A stretch of DNA of 64,000 nt from Cyanidioschyzon merolae (Eukaryota), in assembly GCA_000091205.1 (NCBI GenBank), contig AP006489.2; one strand, given 5' to 3'. Shown piece by piece: positions 1 to 64,000 of the stretch. The notes under the pieces are model-generated. The model was given only the letters and a program-made list of their open reading frames with translations. It did not search any database and was not told the origin of the DNA. How positions within the stretch are numbered: the first letter of the stretch is position 1; each line of letters starts with the position of its first letter. The translations under genes and the position numbers were made by a program.

Positions 1-2638
1 CCACCTCGTTGAACAAGATGACGAACGCACTGTTCTTGACTTTGTGCAATCGTTACTGTTGGTGGCCAGAGCGTGGTCTCATGTACACGCCCAAGAAATC
101 GCCCAATCATCCATCAAGACGCTCGTGTATTCTCTGAATCGTAGAATCACATCGATCAGTCGAACGAGTTATGGTACGCGATGGGGAACGTACAACGCCA
201 ACGGGGTGTGCTTCATAAATTGCTCGATTTTCGGAACGTATTCCTTGTTGAATTGTTTCAGAGGAACGGGATGTACGACGATTTCAGAATGGTACTTCAG
301 CTCCGACACTTTTTCTATATCTCCTGGTCATTTTGTGGAAGAATCACTGTTATCTTCGTACGGCGCTTGCTTTGACTCGTTCTCTTCCTGGCCGGGTAAC
401 ATGGGTGCATGCGCTTTACTACATATCCGTATTATTCCGTGGTATTTTTGCACAACGGGTGATCCCTCGCACTGAATCTCGCCTATTGCATAGGTATATC
501 TACAATGGTTTAAATACGCTCTCGTCATCGTAACCGTCGCGAGTACGTCCACAGATCGGAACGCGGCGTGCCGCTTTCCTCATGCACGAGAAAAGATGTA
601 GCGGAGTAGTTCAGAATAGGTAAAGATACAGAAAAATTCGTGTAGGGGCTGAAGTATGGAGATTAATACAATTCTCGGTTGATCCGCGAGCGTGAGAATT
701 GCGTTTGACAACAGGGAGAACGGCTTTCTCTCGATTTATCTGGGGAGAAACAGCTAAGACGAAGAGCAGCTTAACGCCAGTCTCAGCCGCGCACTCCTTG
801 ATCGCTTTTTAGTGATGAAAAGGGACGTTCTCTAAGAGCAAGAGACAGGAATATGCGATGGGGTAGCCTCGATGCGTGCTTCAACGAAGGATGAGATGCC
901 GCATGATCCACTTCTTTGGGGAGTTGTAGGCGGGCACACGACAGTATCGACATTATGACTGAAGTTGTCGTCATTCTCGCTTGCTTCTTTTTAACGAGCA
1001 GAATTTTGACCCTTTTTGAGTACCCATGTAGAGTTCAATCAAATATCCCGAAAAAGATCTCATCGAGTGAGAAGAATGCGCGCCGATCCCGCAAGAAGTG
1101 TTGGCGTTGCAGCACGAAGACGTTCGTGTGTTCTTCCACCCGCAACGGTCTCTCACAGCAGCGAACTATCTTTTTTCGTCCGTTCATGTCTCTTCATCAT
1201 TATGCATATCGACGGTATGGAATCTTTAATTATGTATCTTAATTGACAGTATTTTCTAGAGAACGCTTTTCGTGGAATGCTTTGACGAAGTCACCGTCCT
1301 GAAGATAGGAACTAAGAAGTTCTGCCTCGGGTGCACGACGTTCAGATTAAGGATGCTGAGAAGGATTGCTCACCTACCTGCCTAATCAAGAATGACCGAC
1401 ATGGAAAAGCAGCGCCGATTTTCGGAAGCTAGCTGTGACAGCGTGCGTCTTTCGGCGAAACTTTTCCAGTCTATAGGATACGTCACTTTTACTGAATGTT
1501 TGCAAGAAATAGCAAACAAAAACAAATAGGATATGCAGGTATAGGTGCTCCAGAATACACTGCTCGGAATATAACAGTGGCATCCCGAACGGATCCATGC
1601 ATCGGCGGCTGCATTTCCGGAATAGCACTTGCGAGACACGACGCGGCCGTGTTGATCAATGGTGAACGCTTTCCGTGTGCTTTCGGCCTCTGTGAATGGC
1701 GCACACGCTCTAGTGCGTCCAAGAAATGATGGGTTTTATGCAGGTCAACGCACTCAATGTCCCGCATAGGTGAGAGTCTTTACGGATAAGCGGTTTCCGT
1801 TATCGACCCGGTCAGGCGTGAACAACCCGATACGATTACGCTCCGCACAGTATTTTTACATGCTGCCCGCATGTTTTCTAGATGGCCTGCCCATGCCAGT
1901 AAGCATGCAAAAAAGACTCGTATTCGGATGCGAATGTTTCGAGAAAGATCCACCACAAAAAAGCTTGAAGCGTTTCAGTGGCGCAGTTTGCTACTCATGC
2001 ACACGTGGAAGCTCGTCGAGACGAGTCTACCTAGGCCGCGCATTCTATGCAGAAACTCACCCTCTGATCAAGTTGCTTTCCGCACCATCATCAGATGGCC
2101 CTGTGCATGCAATGAAGGATGACGAAATACACAAAATCGGATGCAGACGGTATGCGCCGGTCGTCGAAAGCCAAACAAGCTCCAAACCGATCAAGTGAAG
2201 GAGTCAAGCTTGATCGCTCCCGCCATGCGCCCCGCCCTGACCTCGCAGTGGACACAAAGCACTCCGAGGAAACAGCATTGTTTCGTGACCGACGTGCAAA
2301 CCAGCCCGCGTTGCTGGCGATCGCGTGCATGTGTAGCATACTGAGTCTTGGGATACGCTTCCGTCCTATGCAGATCCGAATGGAACCGGGAGCAGTATAA
2401 GGACCGTGCCATTCTCGCCATATGCTCCGCCAAGGCCGGTATCCGAACGTCTTTGCCAACCATTCGCGAAACAAGAACCCAGTATTGACTGGAGTCGCAG
2501 ACCAGTCGGGTCCCCTAGGCGAAAACTTTGTATAATATGGACAGGAAAACTGCCGCGCCGCCTTTCGCACCAGCGCTGGTGCCTTGACACTCATGAACGA
2601 CGCCTGATAGCTGTGCAATCCGACAGCTTGTTTGTGAT

Positions 2639-2896
2639 CTACACTTTGGCATCTGCACGCGATGATGAGGTTTGCGATTTTACCTGCTCAAGCTGCGCCC
2701 GCAAGCGCTCCAGTTCCGTCTCCACTCGCAGAGCGCGCTGGTCCACGTTGTGAATCTCCTCCTCCATACCACTAAAAGTCTCGCGGACGAGCGCGTTTGC
2801 CTTCAAAATATCATAGTGCAGGCGCAGAAACCCAAGTCCACCAGTAACCGTTGCACCCAAACAGAAAGCTGCGAGCCTGGAACGAAAGCTTGCCAT
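2639..2896 (-). CDS. small hypothetical protein (one TM helix then a coiled coil), about 85 aa
   Basis: Sub-ORF of the 2639..3151(-) track ORF, starting at MASFRSRLAAFCLGATVTGGLGFL (hydrophobic helix) followed by a heptad-like EEIHNVDQRALRVETELERLRAQLEQ. No family recognised. Lies in an otherwise ORF-poor region. Confidence 0.2.
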   Translation of the reverse strand: MASFRSRLAAFCLGATVTGGLGFLRLHYDILKANALVRETFSGMEEEIHNVDQRALRVETELERLRAQLEQVKSQTSSSRADAKV

Positions 2897-5439
2897 GGTA
2901 GTGTCAGTAGACAACTGCGTTGCCAGTGCTGCCGCGTTGCTGGCGACACGCCCGCCATTGCGTTGCGCGCTATGCCCACATGGCGTTAAGATCGGTGTGC
3001 TCTCGTCTTTCCACTCAAGTCTGTGACACTCCTGCTGCGCTTTAGAGCAGGGGATCGAAATCATGAAGCAATGTACAGTATAGAGCGTAGACGAATTGCG
3101 TGTAGGGTATATTTTTTTAATGAACAGTTCAAGAAAGACCGCATTCCTCATTCGGTTGAGTCATAACCCAGTACTCAGATGAATGACGAGCACAGAAAGA
3201 GGATATGCGCTCCGCGCCAAAAATCGATACGCTCAAAGACTGGGTGCGGTCAATGGCAGAAAACGAGTCGTCGATCACCTTGCAGAATGCAAACGTGTCG
3301 ATAGTAGCCGCGACGGTAGTCTCTGTTTCTCAAGTGCGTGTTCGTGTGCTCTGAAAGACTGGGATACAGTCTCAAAAAAGGAGTCCTAGTTCACGCACGA
3401 ACAGCTTTGACCGAAATCGCAACTACAACAAAGTTCCTCGAGAGTTGCCATCGATATGAAGCACAGCAACGTCGATTTCTTTTTCCAGACGATGAGAGTT
3501 TCTTCAGATGAAACGGTTGGAATGTATTTGGGTATTCGCGGAGAAGGAGCCATTTTAATATACGATGGAGCTCGAAGAGAAGGCTAGTACAACGGCACCA
3601 ACCACTTTGTCGGATCATAGCAGACTTTTCCCTTGACGTCTAATAATACCCTTCTATGGGACAACGTGGTATTTCACCATTCCTCTTCCGTTTGAGCATT
3701 TGCAGATTATATCGGGCAAGAGCTGCTTTTCATTCTTCCGTAAACTCCGCGGTTCAACCCCAACGAATGAAAGTTTCATATCGTGAAACGAAAGGATCGC
3801 TCCGCTGGGCGCATTGCTGGAGCGCTCAGCAAACTATGCCACACACAGAGACATATTTTTGTCTTTCTTCCACAAGTCTTTCACCATCCAAGCAGGTCCT
3901 CACCTTAAGACATAAACAAGTGCATTCATTCTCGAGAAATAAAAAAACCAAGGCATGAGCTCGTGTGCAGTCTTCAGAAGATCGAGACGAAGAGCAGGCA
4001 ACGGAGTTCTTCGATGATAGACAAGCACGGAGAGGCGACAGAGCACCAAATGGCATAGAGGGCGCGACTTCAAGGAATACTCGCTTTGGTGAGTCTAAGC
4101 AGTGGCAATAACCCCTTGAGTTCGAGAACCGAGAATTTAATGCAGCTATTTATATCAGGAAATGTGCGGTGCCTAGGACGAGACCCGCGGAGCTGATACG
4201 AGACAAGTTTGTGGAGCAGTCTCTCGAGGTCGAATCGTAAAAGGAGAAACTGAAGCCGATCGCAGGATCGGTCGAAAAAGGCTGGGAGTCGTCTGTACTT
4301 AGGTATTAACTTACCCTACGTAGTTGCGCGACCTGTTTGTTTCACTGGCATGTATGCTCTAGCGATAGCCCGTACGTTCCGCAGCAATATTACTGGGAGT
4401 GAAAAAACAGCAGGCAGTCATCGAACGTTCGGGAGCGTATGAATGGCAGGGTACGGTTAAGCTCAAGGTTCGGCGCTTGCACAACTCCATAACGGCGAGG
4501 GTCGTGCCAGTGATCCGACAGGGTACACCAGCTGGCAGTATGTGATTTTGTCATGCGCCCCGATCCTGCCAGGCGAAATGCAAGGGTCAGCCGTCAAGGT
4601 ACATTTAGACGCAGCATGCGCGATGCCTCTACCAAGATCACCGGATCCGTCGAACGAAGCAGACACCATAAGTTAGACAACGACGGCAGCATGGCAATAT
4701 ACTGAACTGTCATCAGTGCCCGCCGATGACGCCGGATAAAAGCAGAATTCAAATCTGTTCCTCATTCCAGCGTCCGTGCGGCATGCATAACAAGAATCGG
4801 GAATAAACGTATATTATTCGTACTCGGGTACACGACTACACCTACTTTGTGTACGATAAATACAACTATCGAAACTCCTAATGACTAGGTTGATGCATGC
4901 CTTACCCACAAAAGCGCAAGATGCTACGATGGCTACGCGTGTGCTGGAGTCATCGCTGAGTTTTGTGCCAGGCCCCAGCATCCCCTTGTATGCTAGGGTA
5001 GTACGGCGATGGGCAGTAGTTTCGGCACCAGCGACAGAGCCGAGCGCAGGAGATCACTCTACGTGAGTTTCCGATCTAGGACACCTGATTTCCGATGCAG
5101 TGCGTCGGTGAGAACACGCATGTGCTAATGCGACGTCGGACACGTGTCCTTCATCGATCCGTGTAGCGTCTCGCGCGGTGCACGCATCGCGGTCAGTGAG
5201 TGCACCTGGCAGAGCTGGCAGTAGTCAACTGGCACGACGCGCACGCCGCCGCCGTTGAAGGGAAACGCGATCTTGATCAGTTGCGTGTCGTTCAGCTGTA
5301 AAAGTCAGATTTTCGTGAGCTTCATATCCAAGTATAGTTTTGATTTCAATTGTGTTTCAAACCTCAAACAAGTGTATTCAAGCGTTTTTTCGCAGTATAT
5401 AACAGAAGCGTTCAAAGAACGTTCTTTTTCAAAAAAAGT

Positions 5440-7750
5440 CTAAAAAAGGAAAGTTATGAAAAAGCAAGTCGACGATCCTGGAGGCCCAGGGTCGCCGGCT
5501 GCCAGAGAAAAAAAACAAAAAACAGTGCCGAGTCCGGAAAAAAAGGAAGATAAGAAGGACCGAAGAGGGGAGGCCCTACGTCGAAGGCGGCAAGAAAGAC
5601 ACCTGTACGACGAAATGGTAGTGAAAGCCGGTCTTCTTGGACATATCAAGGATTCGTACAGGGAAAAGTTGCGAGGCGCCATCAAAAAACGTGCCTAGTC
5701 GTACTCCAAGCGTATTGCCAGGGCGTCGTCAGGACTGATGCATTTGGCGAGGGAGATGTATCGCGATGTGACGCACATGGAAACAGTCGAGATTCCAGAG
5801 GGAGTTTTCGGCAACCTTTATTCGACACCTGATGGTTGGCGCAGGGAACACGCGGAGGGAAAATGTGCTAGTGCATGCCCTCCACGAAAAACACCCCTTT
5901 TACAGCTTCGAGGGTACTCGCTACAAGGGTGACCGGGATATGTACACCTACGGGGCGAAGAAGTACCTCACGAACCTGAAGAACCATCTGACAATGGACC
6001 TCGAACGTTTCATGATACGCGCCGTGGTTGCACTCTACCCGCGCATCTCTCGCAATGGAAAATGGACGATTATCAATGGCATCATGAAAGATCGCAAGCG
6101 TGAAGATGAGGTCGAATTTGTCGACAAGAAGGCGTCAAAAGTGAGCACGAATGAAGCTTCTGCGATCCGTACGGTTATACAAGAGCATCGTGCGGTACTG
6201 GGGCTACCGAATCCAACAGACAAGGTATCAGAGTTGAGCAAAGATCAGGAAAGATACGATCGCCTCATTCTGTGCTATTTCGTGTTTCTGGACCGAGAGC
6301 TCGAAGGCAAGGCAGCGGTGATGCTGCGTGAAGAGACAAATGAAGAGTGGGAGAGACGGAAGGATTTCCTAATGGGGAAGCGCTTCAACGTAGTCCCATT
6401 GTCCAATATCAAGTCACATTTTGGGACTATCGACTCCGGAATCCTTCATGGCATCATGAAGGAGATCTGTTCGGAGTTCAACGTTAGCAGGGAGGACTTC
6501 GCCGGCGAGAACCGGGAGACGTACTGGAAGAATATCTTCAATTTTAAACGTCTGAGAGTGAGCAAGCAAAACTTGTTCACTTTGATGATTGAAACCGATG
6601 GAGTAGCCTTGTGTATACACTATCGGCGGTTGAAGAGAGCCCGGCCAGTCCCTCCCTCGGCTGCGCCCGTCACGAAGGATGAAGACAAGGAGAAGGCGGG
6701 TCCTGCGACGCAGGAGGTAGAGGATAACGACCTTGTCGTTGGCGCAGCGAAGCATGAGGAAAACAAAGAGGAGGATCCTGCGACGCAAGAGGTAGAGAAT
6801 AACGACTTTGTCGTTGGCGCGGACCCCGGAAACACAAATATCATAACCATCGCAGTACCCCAGCGTGCGGAATACGGTACGCACAGTAAATTACGTCAGA
6901 ACGACATGCGTCGTTTGAGGTTCTCGAGAGCGAGATACTACCGAGAATCCGGTATAATGAATGCAAGGAAGAAAATCGAGATAGAGAATGCTGGATTGAA
7001 GAAGCACCTGGAAGCTATGAGCAAGGTGACGAGCCGCGCAGCGGACTTTGAAGCTTTTCTGAAATGCATGGATGTTCATGTTGCTCCTTGGGAGGCGCTG
7101 TGGGAAGAGTATACAAAGCCCCGGTGGGCTCGTTTGCGTATGAATCCGTATTGTGGTAAGCAGCGGGCGTTCGCGAATTTTTTCAATGAGTTGAGTGCCT
7201 TGAAGGAGCATGAAAGTCAGAGGCTCGTAGTAGCATACGGAGCGGGGCGCTGGAAGACCCACAAAGGGACTCCGCCAGCTCCAACGACAAGAACGTACAA
7301 GGAGAATGCACGGCGTTTTGTTACGATACGGATAGATGAGTTCCGAACGTCCGATACACACCGTGAGCTGGAGTGTACACTTCAAAGGGTCGAGATGGAA
7401 AAGCGCCAGGGGAGTCCTGAAGACATAGCAAAGTACGGACCGCTGCCGGAGGTGCAAATGGAGAGGAGAACAAAAGTGCGAGGGCTACTCGCATTCGTAA
7501 GTACAACCAACGACGGCAAGAAACGTATGCGGTTTGTGAACCAAGACTTTAACGCCGCCGTCAATATACGGAGATGCGCGGCGATTGAGAAAAGACCTCC
7601 ACAGCAGACAAGAGAGAACTTTGTTGGACAACCTCTCAAAGTCCAACTATATGAGAAAAAGTTGAAACCAGTGGTGGGTGGCCTGCCCAGCAAGGCTGGG
7701 ATGCGTCTGCCCGTCAGCTGGAGACTGCTTGTCCGGGGCGCGTTCGCCGC
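5440..7750 (+). mobile_element. Fanzor/TnpB-like (OMEGA-type RuvC nuclease) transposon-derived element, copy 1. Boundaries approximate.
   Basis: Nucleotide and protein homology to a second copy at 62180..63986 starts near 5440. The encoded protein has a K/R-rich N-terminus, '[17 protein letters not shown]' (GxDxG, RuvC-I-like, Asp near 6822), 'FFNEL' (candidate RuvC-II Glu near 7188), 'RRFVTIRIDEFRTSDTH..EC' (TnpB-like '..P.YTS..C..C' zinc-finger lead-in, Cys partly replaced) and 'RMRFVNQDFNAAVNIRRCAA' (canonical TnpB/Fanzor RuvC-III, Asp near 7545). The right end is not defined. Confidence 0.6.
5456..7680 (+). pseudogene. Fanzor/TnpB-like nuclease coding region, interrupted (copy 1)
   Basis: Track ORFs 5456..5698 and 5738..5932 are in the same frame, separated by a single TAG at 5696-5698. 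A +1/-1 frameshift near 5825 then joins to the 5832..9404 ORF. Copy 2 reads continuously across that second point, so these are lesions or sequencing errors. The RuvC-like motifs downstream are intact, and Met5832 could still give an N-terminally truncated product. Confidence 0.55.
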
Positions 7751-7829
7751 CACTACTGTGCACCACTGGCGGCAGCGTTTTTCTTTAGACAGGCTTTTGT
7801 TTTCGCTGCCGTCGTCCTCCAGAAGCAAA

Positions 7830-9404
7830 ATGAACGCTGAACCAGGTGTTCCCAACTCGGACCACAACCGCACACGACAAATGCCTGGTGGGAACACAAC
7901 CGAGCAGGACGCACTCGCCGATCGCTTGCTTCGCTTTCTCGATGCGTCACCGTCTCCGTACCACGCAGTCGAGACCGCAAAACTGCTTCTAGAAACAGCT
8001 GGCTATACTGAGCTTCGGGAGGACTGTTCCTGGTTGGGGCGAGTTCATCCCGGAGGACGCTATTATACGACACGCAACGAGTCAACAATCGTTGCCTTTC
8101 GAGTGGGGCGAGCGTTTCACGTCGACGCGGTGAACGGCGGTGAGCTCCGACTCGTTGGCGCGCACACCGACTCGCCGTGCTTTCGAGTCAAACCACGAAG
8201 TCGCGTGAGCGACGCAAATTATGAAAAAGTTGCAGTCGAGTGCTACGGGGGCGGCCTCTGGTACACCTGGTTCGATCGCGACCTCAAGTGTGCTGGGCGG
8301 GTCATCTGGCGCTGTGCGTCCCCAACGGACCCGGCACAGGGCACCAGCCGATCGACCAGTTGGCAGTGCACACTCGTTCATGTACGGGAACCCATTTTGA
8401 GAATTCCATCATTGGCAATCCACTTAGATCGAGAAGTGAATCAGGGCTTCGCCCCGAACCGACAAACGCATTTGGTGCCGGTTGCCGCCACCGCATTGAA
8501 CAGAACAAAGTTGCCACAGTGTCAAGAGCGCCATGCCACTGCACTTACGGGAGCAGTTATTCACACTCTTCAACAGGACATCATGCCCGTTAAAGAAGAT
8601 CCGATGAGCATCACGCGTGATGCAGGCGGTATCGTTATTCATGACTTTGACCTCTGTTTGGCAGACGCACAGCCAGCGAGCATTGGTGGCGTTCAGCGGG
8701 AGTTCATCTTCGCTTCGCGTCTAGACAACCTGTTTTCCTGTTTCGCGGCACTCGAAGCGCTCCTCTCCCTGGATTCCGAGGCTGGGGTGGAAAGCGGTGC
8801 CGAGTCGGCGGTCTGCATGGTTGCGCTTTTCGACCATGAGGAGTGCGGTAGCGGTAGTGCGCAAGGCGCTGCGTCTCCGCTTGTCAGCGACCTGATTCGA
8901 CGTGTTCTAGCGTGTTTATGGACGGGGAAAACGGATGCAGGCGCTTTCGAGGACGCTGTTCAATACACGATCCGCCGCTCATTCTTGATCAGTCTCGATA
9001 TGGCGCATGCTGTCCATCCAAACTACGCGGAAAAGCATGAGAGTGGCCATCAGCCGCTCTTAGGCCATGGCCCTGTTCTGAAAGTCAACGCAAACCAGCG
9101 GTATGCAACTGACGGGTGGAGCGCTCATCTCCTCCGCGCTGTTGCCGAATGCTGTGATTCACCTATACCGCTGCAGGAGTACGTTGTGCGGAACGATATG
9201 CCTTGCGGCAGCACCATTGGACCCATTGTAGCTGCTGGTACCGGCGTACGAACTGTTGATGTAGGTGCACCAAGTCTTTCAATGCACTCGATTCGGGAAA
9301 TGGCGCATGTACGAGATCTATGGTACACCGTCAAGCTTTTGCAAGCGTTCATGCGATGTTTCGGTGAGGTCCGGGCGTCGCATAATACAGCGTGCGTGAC
9401 GTAG
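7830..9404 (+). CDS. aspartyl aminopeptidase (peptidase family M18)
   Basis: 'LLRFLDASPSPYHAVETAKLLLETAGYTEL', 'LRLVGAHTDSPCFRVKP', 'GGGLWYTWFDRDL', 'LFDHEECGSGSAQGAAS', 'SLDMAHAVHPNY' and 'MPCGSTIGPI' are the hallmark M18 (DNPEP/Ape4) blocks. The start is chosen at MNAEPG (7830); MPGGNT (about 7881) is an alternative. The track ORF 5832..9404 fuses this gene in-frame to the upstream Fanzor-like element. Confidence 0.8.
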   Translation: MNAEPGVPNSDHNRTRQMPGGNTTEQDALADRLLRFLDASPSPYHAVETAKLLLETAGYTELREDCSWLGRVHPGGRYYTTRNESTIVAFRVGRAFHVDAVNGGELRLVGAHTDSPCFRVKPRSRVSDANYEKVAVECYGGGLWYTWFDRDLKCAGRVIWRCASPTDPAQGTSRSTSWQCTLVHVREPILRIPSLAIHLDREVNQGFAPNRQTHLVPVAATALNRTKLPQCQERHATALTGAVIHTLQQDIMPVKEDPMSITRDAGGIVIHDFDLCLADAQPASIGGVQREFIFASRLDNLFSCFAALEALLSLDSEAGVESGAESAVCMVALFDHEECGSGSAQGAASPLVSDLIRRVLACLWTGKTDAGAFEDAVQYTIRRSFLISLDMAHAVHPNYAEKHESGHQPLLGHGPVLKVNANQRYATDGWSAHLLRAVAECCDSPIPLQEYVVRNDMPCGSTIGPIVAAGTGVRTVDVGAPSLSMHSIREMAHVRDLWYTVKLLQAFMRCFGEVRASHNTACVT

Positions 9405-43354: not shown

Positions 43355-44097
43355 AGGGATGGAATATTTTTGGTTTGACAAAGCGATTCCGTGTAGCCTG
43401 GATCCTAGATGGCGGAATAGATATCGGTATTCGGCAAAGCGTCTACCGTGCAGCGCTCTAGCTCCCAGTTCCATGACCCATACCTCCTCTCGGATATGCT
43501 GGTCGTTCCGTACGTTCTATCGTTTCTTGGCACTGCCGTTTGGGTTGTGTTCCGCGTGAGTACAACAACTGCCAGTGGATACACAGGTGTCGCTCTCCGC
43601 GCATCATCGCCGGGATTGTCCCAAGTCACAGACTAGTCACAGACTAGACGGCAGCTCTCAGAGAGGCACCTTGATGCCCAGTGCACGTGCTGGACATGCG
43701 CAATGACAGTGTACTCATGAAGCGCTAATCATCTCTCCAAAAGAAGCTTTTCGGAGTTCTGCATACTTAGCGGATTCTAGAAAAGACGATTCCCCAGAGA
43801 TGGAGCAATCGTTTCTCTCAATATTGTACTCGAGCGCGACGAGAAAAACCTGCTTGCAGAGTCGTACGTTCGAGCATCCGAAGCGGCAGCGCACTTTTTC
43901 CATGTCATCTCCAGAACGGCCTCGACTCTGTGTTGCGAACGGAAAGCTGGGGGTGCCTCGATCCCGATCGTTTTAGAAGACGCTGCTTGCCCTGCTTTCC
44001 TGGGCAGAGTACGTGCCTTTGGTCGTGATCCAACGAATCGTCTTTACGGTCTCAGATTGGCCGCTCGCTCTCGTTCATCCACCAGAACCTGTTTCAG

Positions 44098-49405: not shown

Positions 49406-50465
49406 CTTTTCTTTTCCTACTTTTTTGTGTTTTTTCAGTGCGCGGTGAAGTATCCATCAAACACCCTACCTCCATGTTACATTACCTATACTTCGTCTCG
49501 GATATTCTGGTCGTTTCATACGTCCTATCGTGTGTGCCTAGAACCTGCCTTTCTGTATCCGCCTTTGCACCTGAACCGCTCGAGCAGATAGTTCGTAGAG
49601 CTAGAACAGCATTTCTATACCATAGAGGGCGTCGGCTCGAGGGGTGCTTCACCCGACATAGAATCGGGTCTCGTCGTCGGTTTGTGCTCGGACAGTCCGC
49701 GAATGTAGGCTTGGCTTCGCTGCACGACACGCTGGAGAAACTTGCTGTTAGTATGAATCCTGGGAGCCGCCTCTCTCCTTCGTGATCATGCATGGAATGC
49801 GTCGTTGGTTGGCAACGCGGGTTTGTGCTTGACACCCACCAGTGGGTAGGCGCAGAAAGCGCACTGGGCCCGTGTGCGCATCCGATTCGCTGGACCTTAT
49901 GCCTAGAAGGTAGATGCACCGATCGATGAGACGAGCGTTCACGCGCCGTACGTCATTGCTCGACGGAGACGTGTAGCTGGAGTTGTGTGAACACCCCAGC
50001 ACGCCCAGGCGCCTCCGCTTCGAAAGGCTTACCGATCCTGTATACAAAAAATGAAAACAGCAAGTAAAGCATCCATTGGAACATGCATCTTCGCATAAAA
50101 TGTGTAGGAATCAGACACCATTGACGAAAGTCGTACTCGATCGCTCCCATCAACATTCCTCGACTGCTATTAATGGAGCTGGAGGGAACGAAGAGACGAC
50201 CGATTTCTAAGCCCGATATAAGACAGACGGATTCTAATCTGTTCATAAAAAAGCCAGCATATGCTCGTGTTTATCATAGTGGCACGAATTCAAAACATGA
50301 GCGCATTCGTGCGTTCCCCCTGAATAGAGACGCTCCATCGATATCTGACTAATGCGCATCGCGCGCGTTCCGCATTGCCAGGGCGCAGCTGAATGCACCA
50401 CGCTGAAAATCTGTGGTGGATACGAGAGGATACCGGGTAGGCGCGTCTGAATTCGGCATTTGTAG

Positions 50466-60244: not shown

Positions 60245-62179
60245 AGAGCAGTATGATCTAGTTTTGCGCTCGTGGGTATACCCTGGACATCGTGTAAGCG
60301 TTGCTCATCAGAAGAAGCGCGGGATATGCTGTTGGATTGTGCGGGATACCTGATTGTCGACATCGAGCGCGCTCTAGAAAGGTACGCTATGACCGGTCGT
60401 GTAACGCTCCTTCTCGCAATTGGCCAGGGGAGCTCCGGCGTATATCGCGTCGCTCATCCCAAATATATGTGACTGTTCACGATGATAGCCCATCATGGGG
60501 AACTTTTTATCCACCGCTCGGCCGTTCACTTGGAATCGAGCGTAAGATGCTGCTGTGCGTGATCTATTTGTGAGAAAGTTCCCGTGCATGTCCTAGTAAC
60601 TCTACAGCTGCTGGTGGTGCTTCAGGAACATGTTGGGTTAGGATTTGGCCGAACGAACGTTCGGAGAGGACGAAAATCGATAGCTTTATGGAAGAACTTT
60701 AAAGGATGAGAAGCGCATTTGAAACGATCGCGCGTTTCCGCCTTCTTGGTACAGCGATATGCTCACCTTGAGAAGAGATATCCACGGGTAGCTACGGCCA
60801 CATGCAAACAAGGGCGGCAACTCGACCAGTTTGCGCACGAGATCCTGGGCGCATGCCTTCACCGCATAAACTCATGCTTCACTTTCTAACACGCTCCTCT
60901 GACTTTTTTCCATGGTCTAAATCCACGATCCTAACCAGATTTCCTCTGGAGGCGCTCACGCCACAACGGAAAACGAAAGAGACCTCAGTGATTCCATTCT
61001 ATGGCTGTTCCATGAAATGACGCACTTGCCCACGATCGGAGACTCTGTCGAGGGAAACGCGAATTATACAAGGAGGGCACTCAAGGCCACGGTTTTCCAC
61101 GGCTGGCGTACACAATCCGGGACCCAAAAAGTGGAATGGCTGAGGTGGCTATGGGCAGTAGCCGCAAGCTCCCGAGCACCTGTAGATTCTTTTAGTCCTT
61201 CGACTCAACTTTGTTTCACCATTGATATATTGTATAGCAGGAGATCGAAATCTTTACGCAATATACCGTTTAGACAGCAGACGGATCGCATTTAGGATAT
61301 ATATGTTCCTTTACGAACAATGCAAGGAGGACTGCATTCCTTTTTCAGCTCAGTCATACCACAGTACTCCGATGGCCCAGGGACTCCGAAAGAAAGAATT
61401 ATGTGCGCTGCGCTCTAAAAAACTGCTACTGTCCGAGCGTGCTCGTAGACAATGGTAAAAAAATTGCCCGATAATCACCCCACGAAAAGCAAAAGTGGCG
61501 GTAGATGCACTAATAAGCGTCTTTGTTTCTCAACTGCCAGTTCATGTGATCCTGAAACACTGGGATACAGTCGCAATAAAAAGTCGAAGATCGCGCTCGG
61601 CAATTTTGCATAGACATCGCAACCACAGCTTTCCTGGTATTCAGCGATCGGTTTGAAGTAGAGGGACGTCGGTTTGGTTTTCAGTCGATTGAACTTGCTT
61701 CGAACGAAACAATCAGAGCGCCCTTGGGTATTCGAGGAGACAGGCACCCATTGTATGTACGATCGAACTCGAAGAGAAGAACAACATCATCCGTTCGAGC
61801 TGCAGTGGATTCATTCGGCAGCCTCAGTTTCGCTCATAGAGACGGCTCATAAAACAACGCCCAGTACTCGCTCGAATCATTGAAGACTTTTCCCTGACGT
61901 TTGGCGATGTGCTTCTATTGGACATCATGGCGCCCCATCATTCCCCTTGCGTTCGAGCTTTTTGCAGATTGTATTGAGGTAGGGCTGCTTTTCATTCTTC
62001 CATACGCTCCATGGTTTATCCCCATCGAAGGAGCGTTTTCTGTGGCAAAAAGTAATGATTGCTTCGCTGGGTGATTCCTTGAACCTTTGATCACGATGAC
62101 ACCGGAACACATCTCGTTTTTCTTCCACAAAAGCTTCACCCTTGGAAACGTCTTCATATAAGGGCTTGAAGGGAAGTTT

Positions 62180-63986
62180 TCATTTTCAAAAAGTAAAAAA
62201 TCCAAGGGAGAGCTGTGTACATGGAACTGGAGGATCCTGGAGGACCGGTGTCGCCGGTTGCACGAAAAACCCGCAAAGCAGAGCCAAGCAAACAGGAACA
62301 GGCGAAGACAAAGAAGGAAAGGCCGGAGGCCCAACGCCAGATGCTGCAAGAAAGCCGACTGTACGACGAGATGGTGGTGAAAGCCTGTCTTCCTAAGCAT
62401 ATCAAGGATCCCTAGAGGGAAAAGTTGCGAGAGGGTATCAGCAAAACGTGTCGACTCGTACTCCAAGAGTACCGTCAAGGCGTCGTCAGGACTGATGCAT
62501 TTGGCGAGGGAGATGTACGAAGACGTGGCGCACATGGAAAAGGTCGAGGTTCCGGAAGAGGTTTTCGACAAGACGTTTATTCGTCACCTGATGCTTGGTA
62601 CAGAGGAAACGCGGAGGGAAACTGAGCTACTGCATGCCCTCCACGAAAACTTCGTGGAATTCCGCTTCGAGGGTACCCGATGCAGGGGTGACCGGGATAT
62701 TTACACATATGGGGCGATGAAGTACATCACGAACCTGAAGAACCATTTGACAGTGAACCTCGAACGTTACATGATACGCGCCTTGTTTGCACTCTACCCG
62801 GGCATCTGTCCCAAAGGAATATCAGCGATTATCAATGGCATCACGCACGATCGCAAGCTTGAAGATGACATCGAATTTGTCGACAAGAAGGCGTCAAACC
62901 AGAGCACGAATAAGGTGTCCGTCATCCGTGCGGATTTACAAGAGCACCGTGCAGTCATGGAGCTGCCGAATCCAACAGACAAGATATCAGAGTTGAGAAA
63001 AGATAAGGGAAGATACTATCGCCTCGTCCTGCTGTATTTCGTGGTTTTGGACCGAGAACTCGAACGCAAGGCACAGGTGAAGCTGAGTGGGGGAAAATGA
63101 AGAGTGGGAGAGACGGAAGGCTTTCCATATGGGGAAGCGCTTCTACGTCGTTCTAATGTGCACCATCAAGTCACATTTTGTGACTATCGACTCCGCAGTC
63201 ATTCATGGCATCATGAAGGAGATCAGTCCGGAGTTCGATGTTAGCAGGGAGGAATTCTCCGGTGAAAACCGGGAGACGTTCTGGAAGAACATCTTCGATT
63301 TCAAACGTCTGAGGGTGAGCAAACAAAAGGTACTCACTGGGATGATCGAAACCGATGGAGTAGTCATGTGTGTACACTATCGGCGGTTGAAGAAAGATCG
63401 TCCAATCCCCGCCTCGGCGAACCATGAAGATGAGAAGGAGGCGGATCCTGCGAAGCAGGAAGCGGAGGATAACGACTTTGTTGTTGACGTGACGAAGCAT
63501 GAAGATGAGATGGAAGCGGGTCGTGCGACGCAGGAGGTGGAGGATAACGACTCTGTCGTTGGCGCAACGAAGCATGAAGAAAACAAAGAGGAGGATCCTA
63601 CGACACAGAAAGTGCAGGATAACGACTTTGTCGTTGGCACGGCGAAGGATGAAGATGAGAAGGAGGCGGGTCCTGCGACGCAGAGAGTGCATGCGAACGA
63701 CTTTGTCGTTGGCGCGGACCCCGGAAACACGAATATCATCACCATCCCTGCTCCCAAGCGTGCGGAATATGGTACTGATGGCAACTTATGTCAGAAAGAC
63801 ATGCGACTTTCGAGGTTCTCGAGAGCGAGATACTCTCGAGAATCCAGTATAATGAAAGCAAGGAAGAAAATCGAGACGTGGAATGCTAGACTGAAGGAGT
63901 ACCTGGAAGTTTTGAGCGAGGTGACGAGCCGAGGAGCGGACTTTAAAGCTTTTCGGAAATTTATGAAAGTTCGCGTTGCTCATTGA
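62180..63986 (+). mobile_element. Fanzor/TnpB-like element, copy 2 (runs to the window edge, 3' part missing)
   Basis: Homologous to 5440..7750 at both nucleotide and protein level. Compare 62215..62415 with 5456..5698 ('LYDEMVVKA..HIKD'), 62495..63100 with 5738../5832.. ('MHLAREMY..', 'ELLHALHENF', 'YTYGAMKY(I/L)TNLKNHLT') and 63087..63986 ('[18 protein letters not shown]', 'SRFSRARY'). Confidence 0.6.
62215..63986 (+). pseudogene. Fanzor/TnpB-like nuclease coding region, interrupted (copy 2)
   Basis: Frame change and stop between 62415 and 62495 (copy 1 is in-frame across the equivalent point apart from one TAG). Stop and frameshift at about 63100, where copy 1 is continuous. The ORF ends with a stop at 63984-63986, where copy 1 continues. 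Confidence 0.5.
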
Positions 63987-64000
63987 GATGCACTGTGTGA

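Follow-up and report, generated by a model that had tools for sequence, protein, structure and literature searches.

The closest described system comes from the same genome as the locus studied here. In 2013, Bao and Jurka (Mobile DNA 4:12; PMC3627910) reported that Cyanidioschyzon merolae carries CMe-1A, a family of ~150 copies, each ~80% identical to the consensus, with a 734-aa protein that they placed in Fanzor1. The TIR column for CMe-1A in their table reads 'N', the 5′ 635 bp are common to TE-N2_CMe, and the C-terminal 'RD' motif is strictly conserved (PMC3627910). An intact CMe-1A element would have as its sole gene a Fanzor1, that is, a eukaryotic TnpB-type RuvC endonuclease. The Fanzor1 members tested so far are RNA-guided, and an intact CMe-1A protein with RNA transcribed across the right end would cleave DNA that matches the sequence next to the element. 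In Fanzors, the canonical RuvC-II Glu is replaced by Gly or Pro, with an alternative conserved Glu downstream, and the TnpB2 group likewise has a rearranged RuvC with a relocated Glu (PMC10530073).

The DNA that we analyzed, referred to as the window, is a stretch of 64,000 nucleotides from C. merolae (assembly GCA_000091205.1, contig AP006489.2), in which positions 5456-7736 on the + strand encode a TnpB/Fanzor-type RuvC protein. Four proteins encoded in the window are identical to entries of C. merolae 10D, which places the stretch in this strain and not in a relative. Very probably, this region is a decayed copy of CMe-1A, the ~150-copy non-TIR Fanzor1 family, which inserted in the C. merolae lineage upstream of an M18 aminopeptidase gene in the same orientation and is now a pseudogene. 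By blastn, the CMe-1A body at 5233-7794 (+ strand) aligns to positions 689-3168 of the 3169-bp consensus (supplementary file 2 of PMC3627910) at 84-88% nucleotide identity over ~2.5 kb: consensus 689-2194 corresponds to window 5233-6745 (83.7%), and consensus 2121-3168 to window 6747-7794 (87.6%). The translation is 74% identical in amino acids to the published CMe-1 protein, CMe-1p (tblastn). Like CMe-1A as described, the copy lies in the same genome, has a single-exon Fanzor1 ORF and no TIRs, and it differs from the consensus about as much as other family copies do (~80% identity in the paper). The element family is therefore already known, having been described in this genome in 2013, and the novelty that the initial annotation implied does not hold.

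This copy departs from the consensus at its 5′ end. The alignment begins only at window 5233, equivalent to consensus 689, and the TE-N2_CMe-like 5′ 688 bp are absent, replaced by an alternative non-coding module at 4388-5232 (+ strand) with a left boundary estimated at 4388-4536. The module is common to a subset of copies, being 74-78% identical in nucleotides to the upstream regions of other, non-orthologous copies, and the similarity begins at window 4179/4388 (L080), 4536 (L015, L057), 4617 (L028) or 4971 (L077/L083). This points to a subfamily difference rather than to exclusion from the CMe-1A family. At the other end, family-conserved sequence runs to ~7816, ~20 bp past the published 3′ end (the consensus ends at window 7794/7795). 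An element at 5440-7750, as initially proposed, is thus real but drawn too narrowly: consensus homology spans 5233-7794, conservation extends to ~7816, and the 5′ module reaches back to ~4388-4536. The proposed check for TIRs at the element ends found none joining two ends within 4300-7900. Contig L006, 98.4% identical to the window but with a different 3′ flank, was considered as a marker of the right end and rejected; its divergence rises from ~7788, and it may be a metagenome assembly chimera between repeats.

Within the body, the coding region falls into two pieces. An N-terminal Fanzor1 pseudogene segment (5456-5698, + strand), taken from the ORF list, matches the CMe-1 protein N-terminus (tblastn query residues 6-121); its translation shows the K/R-rich, NLS-like stretch REKKQKTVPSPEKKEDKKDRRGEALRRRRQER at 5456-5600, in agreement with the initial description of a basic N-terminus. 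The main Fanzor1-homologous frame (5832-7733, + strand) covers approximately residues 117-734 of CMe-1p, with a REC-like helical N-terminal half followed by the RuvC part. Directly N-terminal to RuvC-I lie two tandem 75-bp (25-aa) repeat units (6672-6821, + strand), to which consensus 2121-2194 aligns twice. In direct comparison the units are identical at 61 of 75 positions, and TRF did not report these two diverged units. Their copy number is one in the consensus, two in the window and one to five in other copies.

The catalytic site can be placed by alignment with characterized Fanzor1 proteins, as had been suggested. Across 19 aligned family sequences, D331, E503 and D572 are invariant. D331 (6822-6824, + strand) is the RuvC-I Asp in GADPG and aligns to DPGR of PpFz1, while D572 (7545-7547) belongs to RuvC-III, where Q571 and D572 (7542-7547, + strand) open QDFNAAVNI and align to NRD of PpFz1; both motifs had been located correctly at the outset, and all the peptides quoted then are present on the + strand in the order given. 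The RuvC-II Glu had been sought, incorrectly, in AFANFFNEL. At the canonical position Glu has given way to Gly (G470 in VVAYGAG; 7239-7241, + strand), with A468, Y469 (18 of 19 sequences) and G470 conserved. The catalytic Glu has been relocated to E503, within IDEFRTS (7338-7340, + strand), 33 residues past the canonical position and aligned to LIDEFRTS of PpFz1. Intact relatives would use D331, E503 and D572 (window numbering) as a rearranged Fanzor RuvC triad. Of 18 relatives, 16 keep the Arg of 'RD', for which the window has Gln. Since the family consensus keeps the Arg and the window copy does not, R571Q fits a pseudogene. In the zinc-finger region, the window reads TSDTHRELEC ... LLAFVST and lacks the four Cys of a C4 finger (OrfB_Zn_ribbon/TNB); the CMe-1 consensus has THHELGC ... 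EKC ... LLALVST and more distant members HH ... C ... LLWCxST. The view that the catalytic-looking motifs are intact is accordingly overstated: the three acidic residues are kept, but R571Q, W385E, L439P, G403A and a degenerate zinc finger are set against it.

How far, then, has this copy decayed? Starting from ATG 5456, the ORF is interrupted by an in-frame TAG at 5696-5698. A 2-bp deletion follows between 5814 and 5815 (site 5810-5819, + strand; consensus GACAAGACCTTT, window GGCAACCTTT, i.e. ggcaaccttt), where the tblastn match passes from frame 2 into frame 3. Together with the TAG, this deletion cuts the K/R-rich stretch off from the nuclease part. Both lesions, the TAG and one frameshift, had been noted initially. 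The same two changes appear in six metagenome contigs of independent assembly (L001, L004, L005, L006, L022, L042), each matching the window at 98-99% identity, and on this account we regard the changes as real alleles and not sequencing errors. A third lesion, which had gone unremarked, is the loss of the stop codon at 7734-7736 (+ strand), where TAG in the consensus has become CGG (consensus GTCTAGGGCGCG, window gtccggggcgcg). Four substitutions affect conserved family columns, namely W385E at an invariant Trp, G403A, L439P and R571Q. On the other side, 72 out of 76 positions that are highly conserved in the family are kept, as are all three catalytic residues; a 661-codon frame from ATG 5832 is still open, so that a truncated or fused product may be translated; and dN/dS versus the consensus is below 1. 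Its value of 0.49 lies at the high end of a family mean of 0.39, which counts towards decay. Overall, decay is moderate. Among the sampled full-length copies, 0 of 44 are intact. Judged from its sequence, this copy is probably dead and would make no functional nuclease. It would be at most inert DNA, with its 3′ end now in the stretch that must hold the promoter and 5′ leader of the aminopeptidase gene.

The initial annotation considered it conceivable that translation from Met5832 yields a shortened yet active Fanzor nuclease. The open frame, the intact D331, E503 and D572 and the 72 of 76 retained positions speak for such a product, which we nevertheless consider very improbable. It would lack the K/R-rich, NLS-like N-terminus together with ~125 family-conserved residues (alignment columns 50-170), would carry R571Q in the strictly conserved RD, W385E at the invariant Trp and L439P, and would have no stop codon of its own before the aminopeptidase. 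In addition, the right-end terminal hairpin of the window copy is broken. In orthologous alleles of other strains (L004, L005, L006), an extra frameshift truncates the reading frame at ...AFANFSMS, ahead of RuvC-II and RuvC-III, from which we conclude that the 5832 frame is not under selection.

Loss of the stop codon has a second consequence: because of it, the frame opened by ATG 5832 runs on, stop-free, for 1190 codons (5832-9404) into the M18 aminopeptidase. Read literally, this frame would encode a Fanzor-aminopeptidase fusion protein, continuous and in frame with M18, and some metagenome gene calls in the M18 cluster are indeed longer than 524 aa (577, 580 and 669 aa). We regard a genuine fusion as extremely improbable. 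Those longer models are automated gene predictions from metagenomes, and the link is due solely to one mutated stop codon (TAG to CGG) and a 3′ UTR that is open by chance. The reference annotation and most M18 cluster members begin at ATG 7830 and are 524 aa long, and the M18 proteins of Cyanidiococcus and Cyanidium have a homologous start without an N-terminal extension. Moreover, the upstream frame is broken by the frameshift in L004, L005 and L006, the longest frame in L022 ends there too, and intact 524-aa M18 sequences occur in the same metagenome collections as those frameshifted contigs.

The preferred reading, a decayed CMe-1A copy beside an unfused host gene, leaves the M18 gene in an unusual setting. 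The gene for the M18 aspartyl aminopeptidase (7830-9404, + strand; Pfam PF02127, E 4e-137) lies outside the element, and its 524-aa product is an exact match to BAM79567.1/XP_005535853.1 of C. merolae 10D. As had been described, the element sits directly upstream in the same orientation. The ATG is ~13-35 bp past the element's right end, or ~13 bp if the end is taken at ~7816, and the M18 genes of Cyanidiococcus and Cyanidium begin at the position homologous to 7830. The syntenic M18 loci of Cyanidiococcus yangmingshanensis and a metagenome relative have no Fanzor homology, and the intergenic region measures 4.9 kb in the window versus 0.7-1.0 kb in those two. From these comparisons the insertion appears to be specific to the C. 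merolae lineage. About 4.8 kb of transposon sequence has taken the place of the original intergenic DNA. Because the element reaches to ~13 bp before the ATG and the relatives lack it, the M18 promoter must lie in transposon-derived DNA. It is possible, if rather unlikely, that M18 is driven by an outward-reading promoter of the element, which in active copies would make guide RNA across the right end. If this were true, a Fanzor/TnpB-type element would have donated a promoter to a host gene, and there would be a handle on where the omegaRNA of the CMe-1A family starts.

At the protein level, the assignment as a eukaryotic TnpB homolog of the Fanzor1 clade made at the outset stands, and the profile and structure searches then recommended both match Fanzor1. 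A profile of 19 family members matched, among PDB sequences, PpFz1 from Parasitella (9cf0, E 7.9e-18; profile positions 136-446 and 510-594, spanning both the REC-like and the RuvC parts) and GtFz1 (9cer, E 0.015), and no other chains at E up to 10. In Foldseek searches of the PDB with an AlphaFold2 model, ranks 1-7 were all SpuFz, PpFz or GtFz (E 2.5e-10 to 8e-6), followed by Cas12 variants; the model is of moderate quality, with a mean pLDDT of 64.6 (the RuvC part mostly 70-90), and TM-scores are only 0.31-0.46. The modeled fold comprises a REC-like helical half and a RuvC domain with an inserted TNB, as in Fanzor and TnpB. The window protein has 81 homologs, and given these, the Fanzor1 profile match (E 7.9e-18) and the 2.5-kb consensus alignment, the resemblance is far beyond chance. 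That the RuvC-like motifs are coincidental and the ORF comes from an unrelated family of transposases or nucleases has next to no probability: Pfam-A and NCBIfam scans of the ORF gave no match even at E up to 1, and the precomputed annotation of relatives is only the uninformative PF26935 (DUF8286), but the PpFz1 match covers REC-like and RuvC parts, the top structural matches are exclusively Fanzor1 and then Cas12, one distant member (P0081), and only that one, has a weak match to the Cas12f1-like TNB (PF07282; E 4.8e-4, 20.7 bits, under the 26.3-bit cut-off), and Bao and Jurka placed CMe-1 in Fanzor1 (PMC3627910).

Compared with SpuFz1 (8GKH), PpFz1 (9CF0) and GtFz1 (9CER), the window element shares the overall fold, the basic N-terminus, the GxDPG of RuvC-I, the DE(F/Y)RTS with the relocated Glu and the RD..NAA..N of RuvC-III, whereas sequence identity is only 13-15%. 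PpFz1 has a CxxC...CxxC zinc finger, while the CMe-1 clade has HH...C...WC, further degraded in CMe-1 and the window; the 3′ UTR of the CMe-1 family is only ~60-110 nt, and its omegaRNA and nuclease activity are putative. With bacterial and archaeal TnpB (IS200/IS605, IS607, e.g. ISDra2), the element has in common a transposon-encoded RuvC D/E/D nuclease, a right end as the expected source of guide RNA and, for the TnpB2 group, the relocated Glu, but it lacks a TnpA partner, its N-terminal half is much larger, it has a eukaryotic nuclear host, and the family profile matched no TnpB among PDB sequences at E up to 10. Fanzor2 (e.g. ApmFz2, MmeFz2; IS607-like) belongs to the same superfamily and has the same rearranged catalytic site; in contrast, the window element is without an associated serine recombinase, its family was assigned to Fanzor1 (PMC3627910), and the family profile matched no solved Fanzor2 chain in the PDB at E up to 10.

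The right end was also where a guide RNA had been predicted, at 7500-7900; our analyses of this part did not show one, and an omegaRNA there is putative. The 3′ untranslated right end (7737-7816, + strand), defined from 3′-end alignments, contains a hairpin of GCCGCCA (7746-7752) and TGGCGGC (7767-7773) and a degenerate terminal hairpin at ~7776-7796. Of 33 distinct copies, ~24 retain the latter, which has two alternative stems; it does not form in the window copy. Searching 4300-8000 against Rfam (E up to 1) returned no match, and the single-sequence fold of 7590-7815 is not significant (MFE z -1.56). RNAalifold on 33 distinct 3′ ends gave a weak signal of -14 kcal/mol with compensatory changes in 1 of 23 pairs and a covariation term of -0.17; folding the 3′ UTR of each copy gave a mean z of -1.2, with only 8 of 33 copies below -2. 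A peak of 3′-end conservation, sought as an omegaRNA signature, is absent: the profile is flat at 0.78-0.85 and drops to 0.69 past the stop codon. A candidate long-range helix picked out by hand, CAGTAGTGG/CCACTACTG, was rejected, with an A-C mismatch in 11 copies and only one compensatory change.

As a discovery this copy carries little weight: C. merolae Fanzor1 elements have been on record since 2013, the biochemistry and structures of Fanzors were published in 2023-2024, and the copy is, on the evidence of its lesions, non-functional. What it does expose is an annotation gap, as the family is unlabeled by Pfam-A and NCBIfam (precomputed DUF8286) and hence easily missed, and the 1190-codon frame could be mis-called as an N-terminally extended aminopeptidase. 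For the CMe-1 clade, the triad is corrected to D331, E503 and D572, and the canonical RuvC-II position is taken by Gly. Several features are absent from the original family description: the interchangeable 5′ modules, the variable 25-aa repeat before RuvC-I, the degenerate zinc finger, the terminal hairpin and its alternative stems, and a T-run on the 5′ side of the canonical left end. C. merolae grows at about 42 °C, and the CMe-1 consensus protein is a candidate heat-tolerant Fanzor1. The element is multi-copy in the C. merolae genome: the window itself holds a second CMe-1A copy at 62179-64000 and fragments at 3954-4298, 43376-43523 and 49465-49668, and metagenomes holding C. merolae contain more than 80 related loci.

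By alignment, the element upstream of the M18 aminopeptidase gene (plus strand, body at 5233-7794) is one copy of an already known, catalogued transposon: CMe-1A, the sole Fanzor1 family given for C. merolae by Bao and Jurka, who named the Fanzor proteins (Mobile DNA 2013; PMC3627910). Against the consensus in the supplementary file of that paper, consensus 689-2194 corresponds to window 5233-6745 at 83.7% and consensus 2121-3168 to window 6747-7794 at 87.6%; the published CMe-1 protein and the window translation share 74% identity. According to that description, the family consensus spans 3169 bp, the roughly 150 copies each share about 80% identity with it, the single-exon protein has 734 aa, terminal inverted repeats are absent, target-site duplications are undetermined, and the 5′ 635 bp are common to a second repeat, TE-N2_CMe (PMC3627910). 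The initial annotation had proposed a TnpB/Fanzor-like nuclease; its observation is confirmed and every peptide it quoted is found in the window, and its interpretation was right in kind, although wrong in several details.

That the ORF product is a Fanzor1 is supported by sequence and by predicted fold alike. A profile built from 19 aligned family members matched only two distinct PDB sequences, both Fanzor1: that of Parasitella parasitica at E 7.9e-18, in two stretches that take in the helical as well as the RuvC half, and that of Guillardia theta at E 0.015. With an AlphaFold2 model (mean pLDDT 64.6; RuvC part mostly 70-90) as query, the top seven Foldseek hits were three solved Fanzor1 proteins (E 2.5e-10 to 8e-6), followed by Cas12 variants. 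Routine annotation fails to recognise this Fanzor1 clade: the ORF had no match in Pfam-A or NCBIfam, and the sole precomputed label on its 81 relatives in a large protein collection, almost all metagenomic, is PF26935 (DUF8286). Three more distant members from other samples (P0061, P0063 and P0070; 32-38% identity, 650-700 aa) appear intact.

Among the 19 aligned members, D331 (GADPG), E503 (IDEFRTS) and D572 (DFNAA), counted from Met5832, are invariant, in agreement with the motifs first assigned as RuvC-I and RuvC-III. The RuvC-II candidate AFANFFNEL was misplaced: the TnpB strand bearing the canonical Glu corresponds to VVAYGAG in this copy, with Gly470 in its place, and the Glu that is conserved lies 33 residues after it, E503, in a motif (IDEFRTS) that aligns with LIDEFRTS of PpFz1. 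The same rearranged RuvC site was described in Fanzors, and shown to be essential, by Jiang et al. (PMC10530073). Between RuvC-II and RuvC-III (window 7341-7520, residues about 504-563) lies a degenerate zinc finger that is not of the C4 type: whereas PpFz1 has CxxC...C....C, the clade of CMe-1A has HH...C...WC, read as HH...C...LLWCxST in its distant members, and in the C. merolae CMe-1 subfamily the WC is missing too.

The window copy is, to judge from its coding sequence, dead. Its N-terminal ORF runs on the plus strand from ATG 5456 to an in-frame TAG at 5696-5698, and a 2-bp deletion follows between 5814 and 5815, after which the homologous protein resumes in a different frame. Both lesions recur in six contigs from metagenomes, which match the window at 98-99% identity across as much as 6.4 kb, flanks included; this excludes sequencing error. 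Three of these six alleles (L004, L005 and L006) carry a further frameshift, which ends the frame at ...AFANFSMS, before RuvC-II (cf. the related protein P0005). Overlooked in the initial annotation was the loss of the element's own stop codon, where the family consensus GTC TAG GGC reads gtc cgg ggc in the window (7734-7736). The catalytic motifs, once thought intact, do retain D331, E503 and D572, but the copy deviates at four of the family's 76 highly conserved columns (W385E, G403A, L439P and R571Q). Position 385 is Trp in 18 of 18 relatives, and R571Q removes the Arg from the 'RD' motif, which Bao and Jurka called strictly conserved (PMC3627910). A dN/dS of 0.49 against the consensus, at the upper end of a family with a mean of 0.39, fits relaxed selection on a lineage that would once have been constrained and later drifted. 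None of 44 full-length copies sampled from metagenomes was intact. An active truncated product starting at Met5832, as had been suggested, is very improbable, since it would be without the basic N terminus and about 125 conserved residues. One allele, L006 (Ga0078972_1015179), is 98.4% identical to window 4722-7808 and has the same TAG and 2-bp deletion, but its 3′ flank differs; either a dead copy was duplicated recently, through trans mobilisation or segmental duplication, or the contig is an inter-repeat assembly chimera.

Downstream of the TAG and the 2-bp deletion, an open frame of 1190 codons extends on the plus strand from ATG 5832 to 9404, its final 524 codons, from ATG 7830, encoding the M18 aspartyl aminopeptidase (Pfam PF02127, E 4e-137). 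Taken at face value, such a frame would specify a Fanzor-aminopeptidase fusion protein, but it is not evidence for one: it enters the aminopeptidase solely because a single mutation turned the element's TAG stop into cgg, and M18 starts at the equivalent of 7830 in the reference annotation and in the relatives' proteins. The upstream frame is moreover broken in at least three allelic contigs, and the metagenome collections concerned also contain intact M18 sequences of 524 aa. The window aminopeptidase is an exact match, with the same start, to BAM79567.1 of C. merolae 10D (524 aa); other window proteins are identical to the 10D entries CYME_CMG045C, CYME_CMG046C and the alpha-galactosidase BAM79576.1, and the other large reading frames belong to ordinary genes of the nucleus (coatomer beta, THO2, Pcf11-like, DEAH helicase and UCH).

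The insertion directly upstream of M18, as originally placed, was confirmed, the right end of the element adjoining the M18 start. No Fanzor homology was found upstream of the syntenic M18 gene in Cyanidiococcus yangmingshanensis (L085) or in a metagenome relative (L084). Upstream of M18, L085 (4976-5293) and L084 have a short gene whose syntenic counterpart in the window is a small conserved coding segment at 2627-2944 (minus strand), the far boundary of the original intergenic region; from this gene to the M18 ATG the distance is 0.7-1.0 kb in L085 and L084 versus 4.9 kb in the window, where the interval is almost entirely repeat-derived, consisting of an apparently internally deleted copy at about 3005-4298 and the element described here. 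The M18 start, homologous to that of the relatives, lies about 13 bp past the last family-conserved base (7737-7830 region). With the right end this close and the syntenic sites free of Fanzor sequence, the geometry suggests that the aminopeptidase promoter and 5′ leader must lie in transposon-derived DNA.

The window copy lacks the 5′ TE-N2-like module; in its place, window 4388/4536-5232 shares 74-78% identity with the upstream regions of several other copies. The 5′ modules of this family are thus interchangeable, and the left end of this copy may lie within 4388-4536. The canonical left end (CGATGACAAAACG) has 4-8 consecutive T directly 5′ of it in most of the distinct long-form copies, with unrelated flanks beyond them (loci L044, L045, L048, L051, L066, L069, L072 and others); this could reflect a TAM-like or a target-site preference, or a true left end a few bases outside the published one. 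Directly N-terminal to the RuvC-I strand, two tandem units of a 75-bp repeat (6672-6746 and 6747-6821, plus strand; 61/75 identical) encode an acidic and Lys-rich 25-aa unit, each terminating in a duplicate of the RuvC-I strand start (NDxVVxA); other copies have 1 to 5 units (L003, L014, L053, L067 and others).

At the right end, family-common sequence reaches about 7816, some 20 bp past the point where the published consensus stops, and no terminal inverted repeats were detected in the window copy. A plus-strand hairpin, GCCGCCA/TGGCGGC (7746-7752/7767-7773), lies 3′ of the former stop codon. About 24 of 33 distinct copies retain a terminal hairpin (window 7776-7796, plus strand), its stem being either CGTTTTTC/GAAAGGCG or CGTTCGA/TCGAACG, but this copy does not form it; after it, a G/T-rich stretch is conserved about 10-20 bp past the published end. 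The hairpin might be a feature of an RNA; alternatively, it might be a DNA hairpin like those at IS200/IS605 or Helitron ends. The 3′ omegaRNA expected from the initial reading was not confirmed: the element had no Rfam match, folding of 7590-7815 gave z -1.56, RNAalifold on the 33 copies gave a weak consensus with one compensatory pair, and across 23 copies nucleotide conservation stayed level, without a peak at the 3′ end. The one hint of selection on structure is the terminal hairpin and its two alternative stems. Any guide-RNA scaffold would have to overlap the ORF, because just about 60-110 nt separate stop codon and right end. A conserved long-range complement, CAGTAGTGG/CCACTACTG, was rejected, as frequent A-C mismatches contradict a helix.

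The window holds further family sequence. Upstream, 3005-4298 looks like an internally deleted Fanzor element in tandem with the copy studied: 3005-3969 matches the region upstream of a second copy (61195-62221) and of the related locus L033, and 3954-4298 corresponds to consensus 2736-3086 at about 70%. The second CMe-1A copy, at 62179-64000 (84-89% to consensus), runs past the window end and contains three or more of the 75-bp repeat units (63488-63642); the tblastn matches to it are spread over frames 1, 2 and 3, which makes it a pseudogene too. Two fragments, 43376-43523 and 49465-49668, resemble the TE-N2_CMe-like 5′ portion of the CMe-1A consensus at 77-80%; a (GGC)n microsatellite and a short T-run lie ahead of the first.
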